Source: Escherichia coli (GTDB lineage: Bacteria; Pseudomonadota; Gammaproteobacteria; Enterobacterales; Enterobacteriaceae). From it: a stretch of 64,000 nucleotides of DNA. The translations under genes were made by a program, and so were the position numbers. Location: assembly GCF_003019035.1 (NCBI RefSeq), contig NZ_CP027447.1; one strand, written 5' to 3'. This document shows, one piece after another, positions 1 to 41,636 of this stretch (positions are counted from its first letter, which is position 1; the number at the start of each line of letters is the position of its first letter). The notes under the pieces were generated by a model. The model was not told the origin of the DNA, ran no database searches, and saw only the letters and a program-made list of their open reading frames with translations.

Positions 1-1967
1 CGCCGCAGGCCCTGACGGCGTTAAGCAATGCCGGTTTTGTTAAGCGCAGTCTTAAGGAACTGGAAAATGGCAACGTCCCGGAAATCAGCCATGAGAACGG
101 CGCTTTAATCGCCACCTTCAGTGACGGTGTCCGTACCCAACTGGCGAGCGGTCAGGCACTGAAAGAGGCCCGGTGCAGTTGCGGGGCCAGCGGCATGTGC
201 CGCCATCGCGTGATGCTGGTGTTAAGTTATCAGCGACTTTGCGCCACCACTCAGCCCACGGAAAAAGAAGAAGAGTGGCAGCCTGCAATCTGGCTGGAAG
301 AACTGGCTACCCTGCCCGATGCCACCCGCAAACGTGCACAGGCGCTGGTCGCTAAAGGCATCACCATTGAGTTATTCTGTGCGCCGGGCGAAATTCCCTC
401 AGCCCGCTTACCGATGAGTGACGTGCGTTTTTATTCCCGCAGCAGCATTCGCTTCGCCCGCTGTGATTGCATTGAAGGAACGCTGTGTGAACATGTCGTA
501 CTGGCGGTACAGGCCTTTGTCCAGGCCAAAACTCAGCAGGCGGAATTTACTCATTTAATCTGGCAGATGCGCAGCGAACACGTCACATCATCTGACGATC
601 CGTTTGCCAGCGAAGAAGGCAACGCGTGTCGTCAATATGTTCAGCAATTAAGCCAGGCATTATGGCTTGGCGGCATCAGCCAGCCGCTTATTCACTACGA
701 GGCCGCTTTCAGCCGCGCGCAGCAAGCGGCAGAGGCCTGCAACTGGCGCTGGGTGAGTGAGTCACTACGACAGCTACGGGCAAGCGTTGATGCCTTCCAC
801 GCCCGCGCCAGTCACTATCATGCCGGAGAATGCTTACGTCAGCTTGCGGTATTAAACAGTCGATTAAATTGCGCACAAGAGATGGCGCGCCGCGACAGTA
901 TCAGTGAAGTTCCTCCCATGCCGTGGCGAACGGTGGTTGGCGCAGGCATTGCTGGCGAAGCAAAGCTTGATCATTTGCGGCTGGTGTCGCTAGGTATGCG
1001 TTGCTGGCAGGATATTGAGCAGTATGGTTTACGCATCTGGTTTACCGATCCCGACACCGGCAGTATTTTGCACCTTTCGCGCAGTTGGCCGCGAAGTGAA
1101 CAGGAAAACTCACCGGCAGCGACGCGTCGGCTGTTGAGTTTTCAGGCAGGCGCGCTGGCGGGTGGACAAATTGTTTCACAGGCAGCGCGTCGCAGTGCCG
1201 AAGGCGAACTGCTATTCGCGACCCGCAACCGCTTAAGTAGCGTTGTGCCGCTGTCGCCAGACGCCTGGAAAATGCTGAGTGCGCCGCTGCGCCAGCCAGG
1301 CATTGTGGCTTTACGTGAATATTTACGCCAGCGTCCCCCCGCCTGCATACGACCACTCAACCAGGTCGATAACTTATTTATTCTGCCAGTCGCTGAGTGT
1401 ATTTCACTCGGTTGGGATAGCAGCCGCCAGACACTGGATGCGCAGGTAATCAGCGGCGAAGGTGAAGATAACGTGCTGACATTATCCCTACCAGCCTCTG
1501 CCTGTTCGCCCTTTGCTGTTGAACGCATGGCGGCGCTTTTGCAACAAACAGACGACCCCGTGAGTCTGGTTTCTGGCTTTGTCAGCTTTGTAGAGGGGCA
1601 ATTGACACTGGAACCACGGGTGATGATGACAAAAACCCGCGCCTGGGCGCTGGACGCAGAAACTGCGCCTGTAGCACCGCTACCTTCTGCCAGCGTTTTG
1701 CCTGTGCCGTCTACCGCTCATCAGTTGCTGATGCGCTGCCAGGCGTTACTTATTCAACTGCTCCATAACGGCTGGCGCTATCAGGAACAGAGTGCTATTG
1801 GTCAGGCAGAGTTGCTGGCGAATGACCTCACCGCGGTGGGTTTTTATCGGCTGGCACATGTGTTGGGACAATTTCGTAATACAGAAAGCGAGGCACGGGT
1901 AGAAGCAATGAATAACGGTGTTTTGCTTTGCGAACAATTATTCCCCATGCTTCAGCAACAAGGATGA
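1..1967 (+). CDS. yehQ: SWIM zinc-finger domain protein YehQ, 5'-truncated by window edge (frame open from nt 3)
   Basis: Frame open from window start to stop at 1967; two CxC..CxH SWIM-like motifs (CSCGASGMCRH, CDCIEGTLCEH); position immediately upstream of yehR matches E. coli synteny. Confidence 0.75.
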   Translation, partial: PQALTALSNAGFVKRSLKELENGNVPEISHENGALIATFSDGVRTQLASGQALKEARCSCGASGMCRHRVMLVLSYQRLCATTQPTEKEEEWQPAIWLEELATLPDATRKRAQALVAKGITIELFCAPGEIPSARLPMSDVRFYSRSSIRFARCDCIEGTLCEHVVLAVQAFVQAKTQQAEFTHLIWQMRSEHVTSSDDPFASEEGNACRQYVQQLSQALWLGGISQPLIHYEAAFSRAQQAAEACNWRWVSESLRQLRASVDAFHARASHYHAGECLRQLAVLNSRLNCAQEMARRDSISEVPPMPWRTVVGAGIAGEAKLDHLRLVSLGMRCWQDIEQYGLRIWFTDPDTGSILHLSRSWPRSEQENSPAATRRLLSFQAGALAGGQIVSQAARRSAEGELLFATRNRLSSVVPLSPDAWKMLSAPLRQPGIVALREYLRQRPPACIRPLNQVDNLFILPVAECISLGWDSSRQTLDAQVISGEGEDNVLTLSLPASACSPFAVERMAALLQQTDDPVSLVSGFVSFVEGQLTLEPRVMMTKTRAWALDAETAPVAPLPSASVLPVPSTAHQLLMRCQALLIQLLHNGWRYQEQSAIGQAELLANDLTAVGFYRLAHVLGQFRNTESEARVEAMNNGVLLCEQLFPMLQQQG

Positions 1968-2091
1968 AATAGTGCTTTTTATTAAGAGTTCTACTCCTGT
2001 TCCGGACTGCTCACGCCACAGTATTAGGCATATCCTATATAGCCCCTGGTGAGAGTCACCAGTTCCTTGATTAAATAAAATGGAGTTTTAC

Positions 2092-2553
2092 ATGAAGGCT
2101 TTCAATAAGCTGTTTTCCCTTGTTGTTGCATCTGTTCTGGTTTTCTCTCTTGCTGGCTGCGGTGACAAAGAAGAATCAAAGAAATTCAGCGCCAATCTGA
2201 ACGGCACTGAAATTGCCATTACCTATGTCTACAAAGGTGACAAGGTGCTTAAGCAATCTTCTGAAACCAAAATTCAATTTGCCTCCATTGGTGCAACCAC
2301 CAAAGAAGATGCCGCCAGGACACTTGAGCCGTTAAGCGCCAAATACAAAAACATCGCGGGTGTTGAAGAAAAATTAACCTATACCGATACCTACGCGCAG
2401 GAAAACGTGACTATTGATATGGAAAAAGTGGATTTTAAAGCCCTGCAGGGTATTTCAGGAATCAACGTTTCTGCTGAAGATGCCAAAAAAGGTATCACTA
2501 TGGCGCAAATGGAACTGGTGATGAAAGCCGCTGGTTTTAAAGAAGTGAAATAA
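2092..2553 (+). CDS. yehR: Lipoprotein YehR (DUF1307), 153 aa
   Basis: ORF 2080..2553; start at internal ATG gives MKAFNKLF..LAGC lipobox signal peptide; synteny. Confidence 0.85.
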   Translation: MKAFNKLFSLVVASVLVFSLAGCGDKEESKKFSANLNGTEIAITYVYKGDKVLKQSSETKIQFASIGATTKEDAARTLEPLSAKYKNIAGVEEKLTYTDTYAQENVTIDMEKVDFKALQGISGINVSAEDAKKGITMAQMELVMKAAGFKEVK

Positions 2554-2593
2554 TCTGTCGGCGGCCATGTTTCGCATGGCCGCCATACCCGTC

Positions 2594-3064
2594 TTAGCTT
2601 TTCTTCACATGCTGGCGCGCTGCCAGTCCACGCAGAAAATAACGTAAAAATTGATCGCCGCATTCGCGGAAGTTTTTATGATCCGGTGCACGCATCATCG
2701 CCGTAATTTCCGGCATCGAAACGCGGAACTGCTGTTCGGTGAGGATCGCCAGAATGTCATCGGTTTTAAGCGAAAACGCGATGCGTAATTTTTTCAGCAC
2801 GATGTTGTTATTAATGCGACGTTCCGGCTCCAGTGCCGGAGCAGACTCATCCTTGCCGCGTTTTTCATAAATCAGGCCATTGAGGAATGAAGACAAAACA
2901 ATGTCCGGACAACGCTGAAAACCCTCTTCGTCTTCTTTACGTAGCCAGACGGCGATCTGTTCCGCGGTGGCTTCGACATTACCCAGCGCCAGAATACGCA
3001 CCAGGTCATTATTATTGGCTTTCAAAATGTAGCGCACGCTGCGCAGAATATCGTTACTTAGCAT
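2594..3064 (-). CDS. yehS: DUF1456 protein YehS, 156 aa
   Basis: ORF 2594..3121 trimmed to internal ATG (MLSNDILRSV...); synteny. Confidence 0.8.
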   Translation of the reverse strand: MLSNDILRSVRYILKANNNDLVRILALGNVEATAEQIAVWLRKEDEEGFQRCPDIVLSSFLNGLIYEKRGKDESAPALEPERRINNNIVLKKLRIAFSLKTDDILAILTEQQFRVSMPEITAMMRAPDHKNFRECGDQFLRYFLRGLAARQHVKKS

Positions 3065-3830: not shown

Positions 3831-5512
3831 GCCTCGTCCCTCCATGGTAGTCGTAACGTTATTCGGGTGTAACTATCAGGCTCACAGGCGACGCTTATCC
3901 CATAGTCATCGCCAAACCGTTCACGTAAACGCTTATCCACCAGATTCATCCCCAGCCCACTGGCATTGGTTACCGGTTGATACAAACCGGCATTGTCTTC
4001 GATCTCCAGCATCAAATGTTGCCCCTCACGTCGGGCGCTGATTGCCACTCGCCCTGTATCCAGCAGTTGTGATGTCCCATGTTTAATGGCGTTTTCCACT
4101 ATCGGTTGCAGGGTAAACGCGGGCAATTGCTGCTGGGATAATTCTTGCGGAATAGCAATGTTGACCTGCAACCGCGACTGGAAGCGCGCCTTTTCAATTT
4201 GCAGATAAGCGTTCACATGTTCAATTTCGTCGGCGAGAGTAACAAACTCCGAAGGCCGCTTTAAGTTTTTGCGGAAAAAAGTGGAAAGATACTGCACCAG
4301 CTGGCTGGCCTGTTCGCTGTCGCGGCGGATCACCGCTTTAATGGTGTTAAGCGCATTAAACAAAAAATGGGGATTCACCTGGGCGTGAAGCAGTTTGATC
4401 TCTGACTGGGTGAGCATCGCTTTTTGCCGCTCATATTGCCCGGCGAGGATCTGCGCCGAAAGCAGTTGCGCAATCCCCTCACCCAGCGTGCGATTGATTG
4501 AACTGAATAAACGGTTTTTGGCTTCATACAATTTGATGGTACCCATCACTCGCTGATTTTCACCACGCAACGGAATGACCAGCGTCGACCCCAGTTTGCA
4601 TTGCGGATGCAAAGAGCAACGGTAAGGCACTTCGTTGCCATCAGCGTAGACCACTTCACCGGTTTCAATCGCTTTTAAGGTGTAAGTCGAAGAAATCGGT
4701 TTGCCGGGTAAATGGTGGTCGTCACCAATTCCGGTAAAGGCCAGCAATTTCTCTCGATCGGTAATCGCGACTGCACCAATATCCAGCTCCTGATACAGCA
4801 CCTGTGCCACTTTCATGCTGTTCACTTCGTTAAACCCCTGACGCAAAATGCCTTCCGTCGAGGCCGCCACTTTCAGCGCAGTGGCAGAAAAAGCTGAAGT
4901 GTATTTTTCAAACATCGCGCGTTTATCGAGCAATATACGCATAAACAGTGCCGCGCCGACGGTATTGGTGACCATCATTGGCGCAGCAATATTACTCACC
5001 AGACGCACCGCATCTTCATAAGGTCGGGCGATCGCCAGGATGATCAACATTTGCACCATTTCAGCGACGAACGTAACGGCACCGGCGGTAATGGGGTTAA
5101 AGACTTTATCAGTGCGCCCGCGACGGATCAGGATGCTGTGTACCAGGCCGCCGAGCAATCCTTCAACGATGGTCGAGATCATGCAACTTAGCGCGGTCAT
5201 GCCCCCCATCGAATATCGATGTAACCCGCCGGTCAGACCAACCAGCCCACCGACGACCGGACCGCCGAGTAAGCCGCCCATTACCGCGCCTATCGCACGG
5301 GTATTGGCAATAGAATCGTCAATGTGCAACCCAAACCAGGTGCCCATGATGCAGAAGATGGAAAAGACGATGTAGCAGAGAAATTTATGCGGCAGACGAA
5401 CCGTGACCTGCATTAACGGTATGAATAATGGCGTTTTACTCATTAACCACGCAATGACTAAAAAAACGCACATCTGCTGAAGCAGCAGCAACACCAGATT
5501 AAAATCGTACAT
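3827..5512 (-). CDS. btsS: Sensor histidine kinase BtsS (YehU), LytS family, 561 aa
   Basis: Multi-TM N-terminus, GAF and HisKA_3/HATPase regions; ORF 3827..5527 trimmed to [10 protein letters not shown] start. Confidence 0.9.
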
Positions 5513-34519: not shown

Positions 34520-35389
<870 letters not shown>

Positions 35390-35788
35390 TCACCAGCAAA
35401 GGGTATTTTCCAGCGCCGTACTAAAATCACGGTCATCTGCGTGCGGGGCTGGAGACTTCTGGTTTAAATCTGTCAGTTGCTGGCGCACCTGAAGTCGCCC
35501 TGCCCCTTCGCCGCTGGAAGAATTTTCGTTGAAATTACGCATTTCAGCTTCGAACAATATGGCATCGAGATTTTGCAATTTATTCAGCGCGCGCAGAAGA
35601 GAAATGAGGGTATCAAGATTTAAACTTCCTCCCTTTTCAATCCGCTTGACCGTTGCAATGCCCACCAATGCACGATCGGCTAACTGCTGTTGGGTCAATG
35701 ATAATGAGATCCGCGTTTCTTTAATGCGTGCACATAGAGATAAAATAATTTCGTTGTTATTCATCGTATTATATTTCATCTTACGCAT
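35390..35788 (-). CDS. XRE-family helix-turn-helix transcriptional regulator (accessory island gene); start codon uncertain among three in-frame ATGs (35788, 35779, 35764)
   Basis: HTH_XRE signature LTQQQLADRALVGIATVKRIEKG; stop abuts yeiG stop with no intergenic gap; overlaps the 3' end of the upstream dehydratase gene. Confidence 0.7.
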   Translation of the reverse strand: MRKMKYNTMNNNEIILSLCARIKETRISLSLTQQQLADRALVGIATVKRIEKGGSLNLDTLISLLRALNKLQNLDAILFEAEMRNFNENSSSGEGAGRLQVRQQLTDLNQKSPAPHADDRDFSTALENTLCW

Positions 35789-37133
35789 CCTTTTTTCTTG
35801 GCTGCAATTTGCTCAGACAGCCATGATAAGTTTCACGGTATTTAGCGCTCATATCCTTTCCGGTTTCATACATCGCGGAAATTATCTCATCCAGCGTAAT
35901 GCACGGCTCGCTTATGCGACTCAACGCCATCGTCGTTGCGTTGATAGCTTTCACAGCTGAAATAGCATTTCGTTCAATACAAGGAATTTGTACCTGCCCG
36001 CCAACTGGATCACAGGTCAAACCTAAATGGTGTTCCATTGCAATTTCTGCCGCGCTGAGTACCTGAGTCACTGACCCGCCCATAAGTTCTGCTAATCCTG
36101 CTGCCGCCATTGAACTGGCAACGCCTATTTCTCCCTGACATCCAACTTCAGACCCCAGAATAGAGGCATTTTTTTTGAACAGAATGGCGATGGCACCGGC
36201 GGTCAGAAAAAAGCGAGTAACGGAGTAAGTATCAAGTTCATGAATGAATTTATCATACCAACACAGTACGGCCGGGATAATACCGCTCGCGCCGTTGGTG
36301 GGTGCTGTCACGACGCGTCCACCAGCAGCATTTTCTTCGCTCACCGCAATGGCAAAAGTATTAACCCAATTGATCGCAGTCAGGAAGTCATTAGTAAACC
36401 CCTTTGCCTGCAACGATTTATATAAAGCACAGGCACGACGGTTAACCTGATACGGACCTGGAAGTAATCCTTCTGTATGCATCCCGCGATAGACCGCATC
36501 CTTCATTACTTCCCATTTTTTATTGAAATCGTCATGCAAAAAACCAGATGTCTGGCAGTGCAGTTCGTTTTTCATCATTAATGCCGCGACAGATAATCCG
36601 TTTTGCTGACAAAGTTTTAATAATTCGTTTGCGTTCTGGAATTCAAAAGGATGTGGAGTGACTGATGGAGGAATAATCGCCTCTCCTGCTTTTAGCACTT
36701 GACCGTCGCCGATAGAAAACCAGGTTTCTTCATAAAGTGTAAACCAGTCATCTCTGGCACGAAATGTCATCGCATAAGGGTGCCCCGGATGCGCCTGTGG
36801 ATTAGAAAGAATGGATACACTGACGTTGACACCAGGCATAACTTCCAGCGTCGCCTCAGTTTCTGCACGCCTGATGGCGGACATTTCCATGCGGATATCA
36901 ACACTGTCAGGTAAGTGGCCTTGCAAACCGAGATAAATCGCCACATCAACATTATGGCACTTGCGGCTTAATGACAGTGCACCATAAAGTTCGACATCAA
37001 TTTTCCGCAACAAAGGTAACATTTCTCGCTGTTTCAATTGTGAGACAAAATTATAAGCCGCACGCATTGGCCCGACAGTGCGGGAACTGGATGGACCTAT
37101 AACGATTTTGAATATATCTACGCAGCTTTCCAT
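35781..37133 (-). CDS. Fe-S L-serine dehydratase paralogue (SdaA/SdaB/TdcG family), about 450 aa (accessory island gene)
   Basis: Aligns by eye along its length with E. coli SdaA ([62 protein letters not shown]); start set to ATG at 37133 ([17 protein letters not shown]) rather than the upstream TTG. Confidence 0.85.
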
Positions 37134-37188
37134 TTTTGTAAATAATTCCTTCAACGTTGAAAACTCGTTATTCGTTATATCCTAGCAA

Positions 37189-37260
37189 AGATATCAAAAA
37201 TGGTACTTTTAGTATCTTATTATTTCAAGGTATCAAAAAAAGTACTTTTTTATCTTTTAT
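37189..37260. promoter_or_regulatory. Two direct-repeat copies of an approximately 27-bp palindrome-containing motif (TATCAAAAA..GTACTTTT..TATCTT) in the divergent island promoter; putative operator
   Basis: Copy 1 around 37191-37219, copy 2 around 37230-37258; copy 2 contains the perfect 16-bp palindrome AAAAAAGTACTTTTTT. Confidence 0.4.
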
Positions 37261-37343
37261 TTAACATTCACAACTGTGATTGTCAGATACATCAGCCTCT
37301 ACGAAATCTTATTATAATCATCGCAGATAAAAAGGAGCGGTAA

Positions 37344-38231
37344 ATGACGATTATTTATTTCTTGTCGCCAACAGGCATCGACATCACCCAAAAATGTCTG
37401 AAAGATTATCTGCAACATTTAAAGATTTCCCCCTCGGTGTTTTCGTTAACAACGAATTACAGTAGGCAAATAAATAGAGAGTATCTAAAGCTAGTATTAC
37501 CAAATGATGTTACCAACCCTGCTTTTTATGCTGGTTTACGTCACCGTGCTGATCATCATCATTTTGATTTTTTCCGCAAACCTACGGACTTACCGGCTGA
37601 GGGAATTATTGCCTTTGATATGGATTCCACCTTTGTTGAAGAGGAAGGTGTTGATGAAATAGCCCGTAGACTCGGCATCTCTGAAAAAATCACCGCACTG
37701 ACCCGTGAAGCGATGGAAGGGAAAATCGATTTTGATACCAGTTTTACCCGGCGAATTGCCATGCTTAAAGGAACGCATAAAGATATATTGCATCAAGTTT
37801 GTGAACAGATGACTCTTTCACCAGGTCTTGAAACTATTCTTCCCATACTAAAAGAAAAAGGATTCAAGACGGCAATTATATCTGGAGGTTTGGATATTTT
37901 TACTGAGCGATTGAAGGAAAAATATCAACTTGATTTTGCATTTTCTAACTCTGTGCGCATTAAGGAAGATCTGTTAACTGATACAATTACCTTACCTATT
38001 ATGAATGCAGAAAAGAAAAAGCAAACCCTGATAAATTTAGCGACAGAGTTAGCTATCTGCCGTGAAAACATCATTGCCTGCGGAGATGGCGCTAATGATA
38101 TTCCTATGCTTCTGCATGCCGGGAATGGCGTGGCATGGAAAGCAAAACCTAAAACCCGGGAAAAAGTTGCTAACCAGATTAATTTTAATGGTTTCGAGTC
38201 GCTTCTCTTTTTTATAGAAGAAAAATTATAG
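37344..38231 (+). CDS. HAD-superfamily phosphoserine-phosphatase-like protein (SerB paralogue), 295 aa (accessory island gene)
   Basis: HAD motifs DMDSTF (I), SGG (II), GDGANDIPML (III); collinear with SerB catalytic domain; AAGGAG Shine-Dalgarno 8 nt upstream of ATG. Confidence 0.8.
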   Translation: MTIIYFLSPTGIDITQKCLKDYLQHLKISPSVFSLTTNYSRQINREYLKLVLPNDVTNPAFYAGLRHRADHHHFDFFRKPTDLPAEGIIAFDMDSTFVEEEGVDEIARRLGISEKITALTREAMEGKIDFDTSFTRRIAMLKGTHKDILHQVCEQMTLSPGLETILPILKEKGFKTAIISGGLDIFTERLKEKYQLDFAFSNSVRIKEDLLTDTITLPIMNAEKKKQTLINLATELAICRENIIACGDGANDIPMLLHAGNGVAWKAKPKTREKVANQINFNGFESLLFFIEEKL

Positions 38232-38263
38232 CGCCATAAAGTTTACAGAAAAGGAAACTCACG

Positions 38264-39586
38264 ATGAGCTTGAAAAAATTTATTTTCAGCCAGGCCGACC
38301 AACCGGTGGTCAAACGGCAAGAAGAAGTTGATCATACTTATAAAAAATTTCGCATTGAAATCATCACCTCTGTATTTATCTCTTATGCCGTATTTTATTT
38401 AACCCGCAAGAATTTCTCTGCGGCCATGCCGGCGATGTTAACGGATACGTCATTAACTGCACAAGATTTCGCTATCATGTCGTCGGTCTTTTACATTCTT
38501 TATGGCTCCATGAAGTTTGTAGGTGGCATGTTAGTTGATAAAATTAATCCACGCGCGATGACCGGCCCCGTACTTATTGGCGTCGGTATTGTTAATATTC
38601 TTTTCGGTTTTTCAGACAGCGTTGCTGCGTTCTATATCCTGTACAGCCTTAATGCTATTCTTCAGGGTACCAGTTTTCCGCCGATGGCAAAAATTATGGC
38701 CTCGTGGTTCTCTAAAAATGAACGCGGGCGCTGGTGGGCAGTTGTTGAAGCGGCGCATAATATTGGCGGTAGTCTTGCGCCTCTCCTGACAAGCTTTGCT
38801 ATTGCTTTTAGTGGCAGCTGGAAGATGGGCTTTTATGTTCCGGGTGTAATCTCACTGATTATGGGGATTGTTGCCTTGTTTACGATAAAAGATCGTCCCG
38901 GCACGCTCGGTTTGCCTAACGTCGGTAAGTGGCGCAACGACCCGACAGAACTTGCACAAGTTAAAGCAAGTCCGGTTGATCTCAGTTTTTGGCAAATATT
39001 CGTTAAATATATTCTTACCAACCCATTAGTTTGGCTCATTATCCTCGGGGATATGTCGGTCTATATTGCACGCACCATCCTCAATGACTGGCCACAAATT
39101 TATTATTCTCAGGTTCATAACTGGAGCCTGATTAAAGCGAACTCCATTATATCCTGGTTTGAAGCAGGTGGACTTGCTGGGGGATTACTGGCGGGATACT
39201 TGTCCGATTTCATGTTTAAAAGTAACCGCTGGATGACCGGATTAATCTTTGCCATCGCTTTATGTATTTGCATCGTTCTCGTACCGCTGGTGCAGGACGT
39301 CTCCTATACATTAACGGCTATTCTGTTTACAATCATGGGGTTTGCATTGTATGGACCGCATATGTTATTCGCTGTCGGGTGTCTTGATGTTACGCATAAA
39401 GATGCGGCAGGTTCCATTACTGGATTCAGGGGCTTGTTTAGTTATTTAGGCGCGGCAATGGCAGGGCTTCCAGTTATTATGGTGAAAAACAGTTGGGAAT
39501 GGTCAGGAGTGTATATTTACGCCGTCATTACCATTTTGCTGACAACATTTTCACTGGCCTTACTGGCAAAATTTCATCGGTTATAA
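38264..39586 (+). CDS. MFS transporter of the organophosphate:phosphate antiporter (OPA) family, GlpT/UhpT/PgtP-like, 440 aa (accessory island gene)
   Basis: 12-TM MFS; OPA-family signatures (YLTRKNFSAAMP, WFSKNERGRWW, LYGPHMLFAVG, AAGSITGFRGLFSYLGA) resembling GlpT; Shine-Dalgarno AAGGA upstream. Confidence 0.8.
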   Translation: MSLKKFIFSQADQPVVKRQEEVDHTYKKFRIEIITSVFISYAVFYLTRKNFSAAMPAMLTDTSLTAQDFAIMSSVFYILYGSMKFVGGMLVDKINPRAMTGPVLIGVGIVNILFGFSDSVAAFYILYSLNAILQGTSFPPMAKIMASWFSKNERGRWWAVVEAAHNIGGSLAPLLTSFAIAFSGSWKMGFYVPGVISLIMGIVALFTIKDRPGTLGLPNVGKWRNDPTELAQVKASPVDLSFWQIFVKYILTNPLVWLIILGDMSVYIARTILNDWPQIYYSQVHNWSLIKANSIISWFEAGGLAGGLLAGYLSDFMFKSNRWMTGLIFAIALCICIVLVPLVQDVSYTLTAILFTIMGFALYGPHMLFAVGCLDVTHKDAAGSITGFRGLFSYLGAAMAGLPVIMVKNSWEWSGVYIYAVITILLTTFSLALLAKFHRL

Positions 39587-39610
39587 ATCCAGAAACGAAT
39601 TTCTGGCATT

Positions 39611-39637
39611 ATGCCCGGCGGGATCCGCGCCGGGCAT
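39611..39637. terminator. Hairpin ATGCCCGGCG-7nt-CGCCGGGCAT between island transporter gene and cirA (convergent), likely bidirectional terminator
   Basis: 10-bp GC-rich perfect inverted repeat; a second weaker hairpin CCAGAAA-CGAA-TTTCTGG lies at 39589-39606. Confidence 0.5.
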
Positions 39638-39644
39638 CTTCTCA

Positions 39645-41636
39645 TCAGAAGCGATAATCCACTGCCATAAAGTAACGACGTCCGTCTTCGTTATAGCTGT
39701 AGTCGTCACGACTGAGATCCTTGTCGCCAAGGTTCAGCACGCCTGCGCGCAGTTTGACGTCTTTAGTTACCTGCCAGGCCGCACCGGTATTCCAGATGGT
39801 ATAACCGCCCGGTGTTTTAGCCGTCGCGCTGTCGGCGCGTTTCTGCCCGGTATAGTGACCAGAAACATAGAATGACCAGTCTTCCAGCGCCAGCGGTTTC
39901 CAGTCCAGCGTACCGTTAGCAGTATGGAACGGCAGATCGGATAGCGGTTTGTTTTCGCCGTTGCTGACATCACGACCATCGTTGTAGGTGTAGTTGAGTG
40001 ACAGTTTCCATTCATCGTTGAACGGAATTTTCAGCTCGGTTTCCACGCCCTGAATACGTGCTTTGTTAACGTTGTAGTAGCTGAATACCGGTATGCGCCG
40101 TCCGTTAGCGCCCGTCTCAAAACCGACAAAGTTTTGGTAGCCCGGTGCAGCATTGACATCAGACGTACGGCTGATGCTGATGCGATCTTTCACATCGTTA
40201 CGGAAAACGGTAACGCTGGACTCCACCCCTTCCAGCCAGCCGTCTTCACCCATGTAGTAAAGCCCCAGCTCCCAACTTTCGCTGGTTTCTGGTTTCAGAT
40301 CCGGGCTACCCACAATCTTACATGCGCCACGGCAGGAATTGCTCGTCCAGTCAGGGCTAAGTTGCAACAGAGAAGGTGCTTTAAATGCCGTCGCCCAGCC
40401 CCCTTTCACCGTTACGGTGTCGGTGGCGTTATAAACCAGGTAGGCACGCGGACTCCAGTGTTCACCGTAGGTTTCGTGATCGTCCATACGCACGCCGGTC
40501 GTCAGCGCCAGCGGCTCGAAGATCCGCCATTCATCTTCCACAAACAGCGCGTACTGGCTGGCAGACGTTTTGGAGCTGGTTCCCCCGGTCAGGTTCACCG
40601 CATCGCTAAGTTTGTCGTGACGCCATTCACCGCCAACCGTGAGAAACTGATTAATCGCCGTCAGCGGCAACGTGTATTTGCCGTCGACCGTATTGCTTTC
40701 GGAAGTTATCGGGCTGCTGTTGCCAGGGTTTTTGTTCTCGACTTTCTCACCGTAGTATTTCAGTTCGCTGGTGCCGTAATCCCAACGCCCATTATGGCTG
40801 ACGGAGTAGTTCTGGCGTTCCAGGCGGTTTTTGTCCAGCGAGTCGGAATCACGATCCTGACGGTCGAAACCGTATCCGGCAGTAAAATCGTGATTTTGAT
40901 TCGGTGTCCAGGCAAATTCGACATTGCCGTCGCGGCTGGAGAATCCTTCAATACGCGGCGTTTCTCCGGTATCGGTGGTCGTTGAGTTTTGCGGGTCATC
41001 CTTTTCACGTTTTGCCAGGCTGCCGTAAGCTTTCATTCCCAGCACACCATCAATTAATGGTCCACTGGTAAAGAACTGACCGTTATAGGTATCACCGCGA
41101 TCGCGATGTTCCTGAATGGTGGTATCGACGGTAACGGTACCCGACCATTTCTGACCGATTTTTTTGGTGATGATATTCACTACACCGCCGAGTGCATCGG
41201 AACCGTACAGCGACGACATCGGGCCACGGACCACTTCAATACGTTCGATGGAATCGACCGGGATCCAGTTCAGATCGAAATCATTGTGGCGGAAGACGGC
41301 ATTGCGGGAGTTAACGCGTTTACCGTCGACAAGAATCAGGGTGTAGCTGCTGTCCAGACCACGAATACTAACGCCCTTACGGTTATCCCCTTCGTTCGTC
41401 AGTTGTACGCCAGGCACTTCTTTGAGCACATCCTTCAGATTCTGTACCGGTTTTCGCTGCAGGTCTTCCTGGGTAATGACGCTGATACTGGCGGGTGCAT
41501 CTTTAAGGTTTTGCTCAACGGAAGATGCAGTGACAACCATCGTTTCGCCATCATCATCGACCGCTAACACAGGCCATGCACAAGAAATAGCGGACAAACA
41601 CAGCCCGACCCGTACGAAAGGGTTCAACCTAAACAT
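39645..41636 (-). CDS. cirA: TonB-dependent catecholate siderophore / colicin I receptor CirA, 663 aa
   Basis: Signal peptide [25 protein letters not shown], TonB box, C-terminal aromatic residue; length. Confidence 0.93.

Follow-up and report, generated by a model that had tools for sequence, protein, structure and literature searches.

The stretch of DNA analysed here (the window) comprises 64,000 nucleotides (nt) of contig NZ_CP027447.1 from the Escherichia coli assembly GCF_003019035.1, and contains a block of four genes (35390-39612) between the convergent core genes yeiG and cirA. A first-pass annotation of the sequence described this block as an island inserted precisely between the two 3' ends by a mechanism that was not apparent. 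The boundaries, the insertion/deletion difference (indel) from strain K-12 and the lack of mobility features were confirmed, but the polarity of an insertion was not, given that the block is syntenic in other taxa and that its divergence tracks that of the flanking genes. With a probability of roughly 0.8, the block is an old chromosomal unit that was inherited by the strain and not a recent island; E. coli is polymorphic for it, and the block-bearing and empty states are probably exchanged via the flanks.

The block is filled by the four genes and a promoter region of 210 nt, and its neighbours are core genes (Table 1). Between 34900 and 40200 the window is a 100% match to E. coli SCU-301 (NZ_CP051751.1). 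The gene of the L-serine ammonia-lyase (abbreviated SDH) is followed by that of the helix-turn-helix (HTH) regulator, with one base between the SDH stop codon (35781-35783) and the HTH start codon (35777-35779).

Table 1. Features of the yeiG-cirA locus in the window.
Feature	Position	Strand	Evidence
yeiG, S-formylglutathione hydrolase, left flanking core gene	34553-35389	+	
Left junction, yeiG stop / HTH stop, 0 intergenic bases	35389-35390		
HTH_3/XRE-family regulator, 129 aa, distal gene of the SDH-HTH pair	35390-35779	-	Pfam HTH_3, E = 2.6e-9
L-serine ammonia-lyase, single-chain Fe-S type, 450 aa	35781-37133	-	Pfam SDH_beta and SDH_alpha; NCBIfam TIGR00720
Divergent promoter region, 210 nt, 28% GC	37134-37343		
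SerB-type phosphoserine phosphatase paralogue (HAD-IB), 295 aa	37344-38231	+	Pfam HAD/Hydrolase; NCBIfam TIGR00338
MFS transporter, organophosphate:phosphate antiporter family (UhpC/PgtP/GlpT-like), 440 aa	38264-39586	+	Pfam MFS_1
Hairpin 1, CCAGAAA-CGAA-TTTCTGG	39589-39606		Fold prediction
Hairpin 2, ATGCCCGGCG-loop-CGCCGGGCAT, cirA-proximal two-way terminator-like stem	39611-39637		Fold prediction
cirA, catecholate siderophore / colicin I receptor, right flanking core gene	39645-41636	-	

Against the NCBIfam models, the L-serine ammonia-lyase scored 543.8 bits to TIGR00720 (cutoff 345). The SerB-type phosphatase passed the equivalog model TIGR00338 with 208.5 bits (cutoff 144.15) and failed NF008350, the model for the full-length SerB of the E. 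coli type (203 vs a cutoff of 413); its gene is the fastest-evolving member of the block. The scores of the MFS protein, set against the subfamily cutoffs, were 426/564 for UhpC, 343/408 for PgtP (TIGR00881), 278/633 for GlpT and 197/497 for UhpT, which by these model matches places it in the wider organophosphate antiporter family but in none of the named subfamilies. The HTH protein is 76% identical to its Salmonella orthologue over the full length, and the MFS protein 92% identical to its Salmonella counterpart.

Among 5,426 complete E. coli genomes, the block was found in 85-89 (~1.6%), in one copy each and always on the chromosome; among the matches listed, every match to the block also overlaps yeiG. 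The corresponding 110-nt junction of K-12 (at least 80% covered) was found in 5,333 genomes (~98%), 4,908 of which, including MG1655 and O157:H7, are at least 99% identical to it.

Outside E. coli, the block was found at the yeiG junction in E. whittamii, Salmonella enterica, Citrobacter werkmanii, Citrobacter sp. FP75 and one Scandinavium contig. In E. whittamii (GCA_014836715.1) it lies between yeiG and cirA, with the HTH gene (5047-5436) directly after yeiG (4210-5046); the Scandinavium contig has the same four-gene order between the same two genes, and in Salmonella the order is folE-fghA(yeiG)-HTH-SDH-serB-MFS-cirA-lysP. A protein search with the SerB-like phosphatase yielded named homologues from E. 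coli, E. whittamii, Scandinavium, Salmonella and Citrobacter. Among the sampled genomes with yeiG, the block is absent from C. youngae, Kluyvera, Leclercia, Pseudocitrobacter, Phytobacter, several Enterobacter and Klebsiella, and in the block-free genera of this sample (Kluyvera to Klebsiella) cirA, where present, adjoins yeiG. In Citrobacter L007, L008 and L009, cirA is replaced by another TonB-dependent receptor (~36% identical) on the opposite strand, so that the right neighbour is not conserved there.

The block diverges in step with its surroundings. Compared with E. whittamii, the block genes of the window show 84-94% nt identity and the flanking genes 90-94%; compared with Salmonella, Citrobacter and Scandinavium, the values are 69-78% for the block and 73-87% for the flanks. 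Over nine taxa or alleles (36 pairs, with yeiB, folE and lysP taken together as flanks), block and flank divergence are correlated with a Pearson r of 0.99, the block evolving at about 1.4-1.6 times the flank rate. The E. coli copies differ from E. whittamii by 12.0-12.8% in the block and 7.3-7.9% in the flanks, and among themselves by up to 5.2% and 4.1%, respectively. A block whose copies are up to 5.2% apart within E. coli is about as old as the species. A recent import from E. whittamii was ruled out, as the E. coli genome closest to the E. whittamii locus is only 89.5% identical to it.

As judged from these sequence comparisons, the block already lay between yeiG and cirA in the ancestor of E. 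coli and E. whittamii at the latest, and its residence there very probably goes back to the ancestor shared by Escherichia, Salmonella, Citrobacter and Scandinavium. With the block inherited, any insertion falls no later than the ancestor that these genera share, and what took place within E. coli would be loss or allelic replacement, not gain.

The searches for signatures of mobility were negative throughout, in agreement with the first-pass annotation, which had noted no integrase, transposase, tRNA gene or flanking repeats. No tRNA or tmRNA gene was found between 30000 and 45000. A repeat search between 34900 and 40200 (seeds of 7 nt) revealed no repeat, direct or inverted, linking one end of the block to the other, and the two junction windows, compared directly, have not one 4-mer in common; neither analysis thus indicated a target-site duplication. 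The Pfam domains of the block proteins are HTH_3, SDH_alpha/beta, HAD and MFS_1 only, without any integrase, recombinase or transposase, no mobility gene is annotated by RefSeq from yeiB to cirA in SCU-301, and an Rfam search at E ≤ 0.1 gave no match. For a block that is old and syntenic, the lack of mobility genes and flanking repeats is to be expected. A plasmid origin was ruled out, since a plasmid collection held no true plasmid copy, its best full-length matches (~72% identity) being mislabelled pieces of Salmonella chromosome.

These observations also bear on a recent insertion into the lineage of the strain, by some illegitimate or site-specific mechanism acting at the yeiG-cirA spacer. 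The absence of the block from ~98% of E. coli, the abrupt junctions and a GC content of 42.9%, compared with 52-53% in the flanks of the window, would all suit such an event, but it is extremely unlikely in view of the same junction being occupied in other taxa with a divergence that tracks the flanks, the distance between the E. coli copies, the lack of a near-identical plasmid copy and the absence of mobility genes, tRNA genes and repeats. The GC content of the block is below that of the flanks in every host examined, including E. whittamii, Salmonella, Citrobacter and Scandinavium (42.9-50.3% vs 52-55%), which suggests an original entry from elsewhere; as this entry predates the genera concerned, its mechanism can no longer be read from the junctions.

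At the left junction, the yeiG stop codon TAA (35387-35389) adjoins TCA (35390-35392), the reverse-strand TGA stop of the HTH gene, so that the two stop codons abut without an intergenic base, as had been noted before. The same stop-to-stop abutment is present in E. whittamii, C. werkmanii and Citrobacter sp. FP75, while in Salmonella and Scandinavium yeiG overlaps the HTH gene by 12 nt. With the gene boundary marked by a slash, the junction reads ...caggaataa/TCACCAGCAAAGG in E. coli with the block, ...cgggaataa/TCACCAGTAAAGG in E. whittamii and ...ctgaagtga/TCACCAATACAG in the two Citrobacter strains, where the block side starts with TCACCA. The sharing of this abutting junction by E. coli, E. 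whittamii and Citrobacter implies that the final codons of yeiG are homologous and that the gene boundary is the true left junction. A left breakpoint inside yeiG, at 35381, was considered and dropped, because block-bearing Citrobacter alleles end in CTGAAGTGA or CTGAAATAA right before TCACCA. The abutting stops leave no space for a terminator of the convergent yeiG and SDH-HTH transcripts, and an antisense overlap of the two is therefore likely.

The C-terminal tail of the HTH gene (35390-35520) is GC-rich, as the first-pass annotation had remarked, with 56.5% compared with 39.0% in the remainder of the gene, and a GC-rich tail is also found in E. whittamii and Salmonella. The accompanying proposal that the tail derives in part from ancestral intergenic or terminator DNA failed: the best local alignment of the 31-nt K-12 spacer to 35390-35520 was matched by 28% of 2000 shuffles, and the tail is conserved coding sequence. 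Its length of 46 codons is kept, the protein having 129 aa in E. coli, E. whittamii, Salmonella, Citrobacter and Scandinavium; it carries the conserved motifs GRLQVRQ and ALENxLCW, and its dN/dS is 0.13-0.39. A resemblance to the spacer of the form CTGAAGT...CGCCC...TTCGCCG at 35488-35515 is likewise at chance level, and the Salmonella protein keeps this stretch as GRLQVRQ.

At the right junction, 58 nt separate the stop codons of the MFS gene (39586) and cirA (39645). The two hairpins reported in this spacer were recovered, its predicted folds of -28.8 kcal/mol on the plus strand and -30.1 kcal/mol on the minus strand (z = -4.5 and -4.8) being equalled by 0 of 200 shuffles. Hairpin 1 occurs only in the E. 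coli alleles and is not conserved in E. whittamii or contig L097; hairpin 2 is conserved in both, and its right arm and the bases downstream are common to the K-12 hairpin GCCCGG-TTCG-CCGGGC. A terminator scan found no canonical intrinsic terminator at either the left or the right junction, the hairpins lacking a good T-run.

Alignment with the K-12 junction placed the boundaries where the first-pass annotation had put them, with an indel of 4.2 kb exactly between the convergent 3' ends; breakpoints elsewhere, overlooked repeats and remnants of mobility genes were looked for, and none were found. The empty alleles, MG1655 included, have a single junction architecture, with yeiG and cirA 30-31 nt apart (31 nt in K-12) around a small hairpin. 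The K-12-type site reads ...CAGTATTTAC TGAAGTGA / AAGTCC GCCCGG TTCG CCGGGC ATCTTCTCA /, followed by the cirA stop. Base-by-base collinearity ceases at 35381, 8 nt before the end of yeiG, where the window has CAGGAATAA and K-12 CTGAAGTGA; the last 8 nt of yeiG (35382-35389) are AGGAATAA in the window and TGAAGTGA in K-12. Collinearity returns at 39628, or at 39613 if the left hairpin arm GCCCGG is counted as homologous, so that the right end of the indel falls inside the cirA-proximal hairpin (39613-39628), the right arm of which both states share. The window thus has about 4.2 kb in place of 14-22 nt in K-12, without any duplicated target sequence. Apart from the shared right arm of hairpin 2, four of the last 8 bases of yeiG and the AAGTCC of the spacer are not collinear between the states. 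The K-12 patch CTGAAGTGAAAGTCCGCCCGG had no match in the window at up to 3 mismatches, and alignment of the K-12 spacer to the whole block remained at chance level.

Block-bearing and empty alleles occur on closely matched backgrounds: the divergence between the empty allele L099 and L089, a carrier of the block, stays at 0-2% per 300 nt as far as the final 9 nt of yeiG, where L099 has a variant of the empty junction, ctgaagtaa/AGTCTGCCCGG. Within E. coli, block and flank divergence are correlated with an r of only 0.48, and the groupings differ: the block tree is ((win,L088),(L089,L093)),(L090,L092), where win denotes the window, and the flank tree is ((win,L088),(L090,L092)),(L089,L093). This conflict between the sequence trees points to recombination across the locus. 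The two states would be exchanged by homologous recombination in yeiG and the region upstream and in cirA and the region downstream; since both states are bounded by the same core genes, they are exchangeable without an integrase, a transposase, a tRNA site or a target duplication.

A divergent yeiG allele marks one E. coli lineage, represented by L089 and L093 (11172-12008) and L099 (11764-12600). It is 8-10% from all other yeiG of E. coli, near the distance to E. whittamii (10-12%) and far above the neighbouring genes (~4%), and it occurs both with the block (L089, L093) and without it (L099). The cirA gene exists in forms of 1992 nt and 1980 nt (a 12-nt indel; window 39645-41636, L003, L089, L090, L092, L093, L099 and L101), its divergence peaks at 4-6% some 300-600 nt from the 3' end, and that of the avian pathogenic E. 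coli (APEC) strain BEN2908 has an internal stop; such variation would fit a colicin and phage receptor that is under diversifying pressure.

Several carriers have damaged copies of the block. In VE-T9 (L005, NZ_AP027963.1; 2900-3884), an IS1 element replaces most of SDH, all of the SerB-like gene and the start of the MFS gene, and H85 (NZ_CP172867.1) shows a similar truncation linked to IS1A. In strain 90-3040 of a Shiga-toxin lineage (L091, NZ_CP027459.1; 12400-13753), the L-serine ammonia-lyase gene is annotated as frameshifted, a sign that some carriers are losing the block by decay. In strain 20332 (L006, NZ_CM190157.1; 3654-5523), another kind of deletion at the site has taken away the 3' parts of both yeiG and cirA, so that the truncated genes are fused to each other.

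The empty allele most likely arose by a single deletion or replacement, which would have begun at the yeiG end and run through the left arm and loop of the hairpin next to cirA, leaving TGAAGTGA and the AAGTCC patch behind. Several points weigh against inheritance of the block followed by such a loss. A yeiG ending in ...AQYLLK* (CTGAAGTGA/TAA) is common throughout Enterobacteriaceae, and the empty allele has retained this CTGAAGTGA ending, which is that of C. werkmanii and also codes for the LLK* of Kluyvera and Enterobacter. Block-bearing E. coli end yeiG in CAG[G/A]AATAA, all block-bearing Escherichia in C[A/G]G[G/A]AATAA and Salmonella in CGGGAC, and a simple deletion from such an allele would not yield the empty ending. 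Nothing in the block corresponds to the 6-nt AAGTCC found in the empty spacer; it follows that the event was not a clean deletion, or is older than the split of E. coli and E. whittamii, or that the empty allele stems from a lineage that never had the block. Furthermore, the correlation of block and flank divergence is drawn from nine taxa or alleles that are phylogenetically non-independent, the ancestral state within the genus Escherichia is read from a single species, E. whittamii, and the recombination step comes from tree conflict among six E. coli alleles and not from a formal analysis. The pathway proposed below for the block proteins is built on family assignments, with an MFS protein below every subfamily cutoff.

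The base differences at the junction are also what would be left by an old two-allele polymorphism, in which a block-free allele predates the split of E. coli and E. whittamii or was re-imported, and recombination has trimmed the linked foreign sequence to the bases adjacent to the indel. The differences are clustered (four of the last 8 yeiG bases, AAGTCC and the hairpin loop, with 24 nt upstream and more than 90 nt downstream identical), the patch is fully linked to the empty state on yeiG backgrounds as different as those of L099 and K-12, and the empty junction of L099 has variants of its own (TAA, AGTCT), which is what an old allele would show. The same pattern is explained by one complex deletion that brought in filler bases, however, and the uniformity of the 110-nt junction in 4,908 genomes also fits a younger, spreading allele; such a polymorphism is rated as somewhat unlikely.

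Alternatively, the empty state may be ancestral for Escherichia, with a single transfer of the block from a related genus into the E. coli / E. whittamii stem, by way of crossovers in yeiG and in cirA, and segregation ever since. An empty allele with the widespread CTGAAGTGA ending would fit this, as would the CGGGA/CAGGA that block-bearing Escherichia alleles share with Salmonella and the lack of a named E. albertii or E. fergusonii homologue among the SerB-like matches. The missing names count for little, as roughly three quarters of the proteins in the collection searched are unnamed. Moreover, the block lies 27-29% from Salmonella, Citrobacter and Scandinavium in a star-like pattern, in proportion to the flanks, which would make the import about as old as the genera, and neither E. 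whittamii nor E. coli has flanks that are unduly similar to another genus. An early import is thus improbable, and the preferred reading remains that of an old inherited block.

The closest known counterpart is the locus of Salmonella LT2, with the same four genes in the same order and orientation, neighboured as in the window by folE-yeiG to the left and cirA-lysP to the right, and with conserved promoter-region repeats. We take the LT2 genes to be STM2194 (yeiG/fghA), STM2196-STM2198 (block) and STM2199 (cirA), the HTH gene being STM2195. The two loci differ in that nt identity is ~72% overall, yeiG of Salmonella is 7 codons longer, with its 12-nt overlap with the HTH gene, and another hairpin precedes cirA; the block is present in 5 of 5 Salmonella records matched, and is a rare allele in E. 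coli.

Exchange via flanking core genes of segments that lack mobility genes is known in E. coli from the O-antigen cluster between galF and gnd and from the hotspots of integration and loss in the pan-genome. The yeiG-cirA block resembles O-antigen-type segments in its fixed site between core genes, the absence of an integrase, tRNA gene or repeats, the alternatives on similar backgrounds and the signs of recombination in the flanks, but only two states exist here (the block or a 31-nt spacer) and the block is orthologous across genera. The likeness to hotspots holds at the family level, where differing cargo is found between yeiG and cirA in other Enterobacteriaceae. By eye, the site holds an apparent LysR-type regulator and a small membrane open reading frame (ORF) in Pseudescherichia vulneris L015 (8841-10493; also in L016), and an 811-aa ORF resembling a PQQ-type glucose dehydrogenase in Enterobacter sp. 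BIGb0383 L017 (8838-11653). The convergent yeiG-cirA junction is a repeatedly variable site across Enterobacteriaceae. With tRNA-associated genomic and pathogenicity islands the block has in common a GC content below that of the flanks and a patchy distribution within the species; in contrast to these, it lacks a tRNA gene, integrase, direct repeats and mobility genes, and is syntenic across genera.

The divergent promoter region between SDH and the serB-like gene contains two direct repeats of 23 nt each, AAGATATCAAAAATGGTACTTTT (37188-37210) and AAGGTATCAAAAAAAGTACTTTT (37227-37249), which are 39 nt apart; it also holds, within 37267-37280, the palindrome TCACAACTGTGA. Across E. coli, E. whittamii, Salmonella, Citrobacter and Scandinavium, there is little or no variation in the palindrome and in the cores of the repeats, the remaining spacer being poorly conserved. 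Given this conservation pattern, the repeats and the palindrome are likely candidate operator sites, and the XRE protein probably acts at the repeats (37188-37249). In LT2, the HTH gene STM2195 has been tabulated as a 'putative DNA-binding protein' without a K-12 b-number or orthologue (PMC3487940). In the library searched, no paper dealt with a yeiG-cirA island, with phosphoserine uptake or utilisation, or with the pathway proposed below.

Family membership of the proteins suggests a role in the uptake of O-phosphoserine or a similar organophosphate and its conversion to serine and then to pyruvate, ammonia and phosphate, under control of the XRE regulator. The steps would be carried out in turn by the organophosphate antiporter, the SerB-type phosphatase and the L-serine ammonia-lyase. 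The UhpT/UhpC, GlpT and PgtP systems contain the best family matches of the MFS protein, and pgtP and uhpT likewise belong to small regulated clusters; the block differs from them in an MFS protein below the subfamily cutoffs, which is accompanied by a phosphatase of the SerB type and an L-serine ammonia-lyase, and in a regulator that is a one-component XRE protein and not a two-component system. That the block and the empty site form a polymorphism older than E. coli, maintained because a module for organophosphate-serine (probably O-phosphoserine) helps in some niches and is costly in others, is doubtful.

The yeiG-cirA block is an ordinary case of an ancestral accessory block which most of the species is without and which is misread as an island because the comparison is made with K-12. 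Its island-like appearance against K-12, with low GC, abrupt ends and absence from the reference, is that of an old resident missing from the reference, and it is a clear example of a K-12-centred comparison giving the wrong polarity of an indel. The four genes would form a coherent, uncharacterised pathway, and have been kept across genera along with the operator-like repeats.

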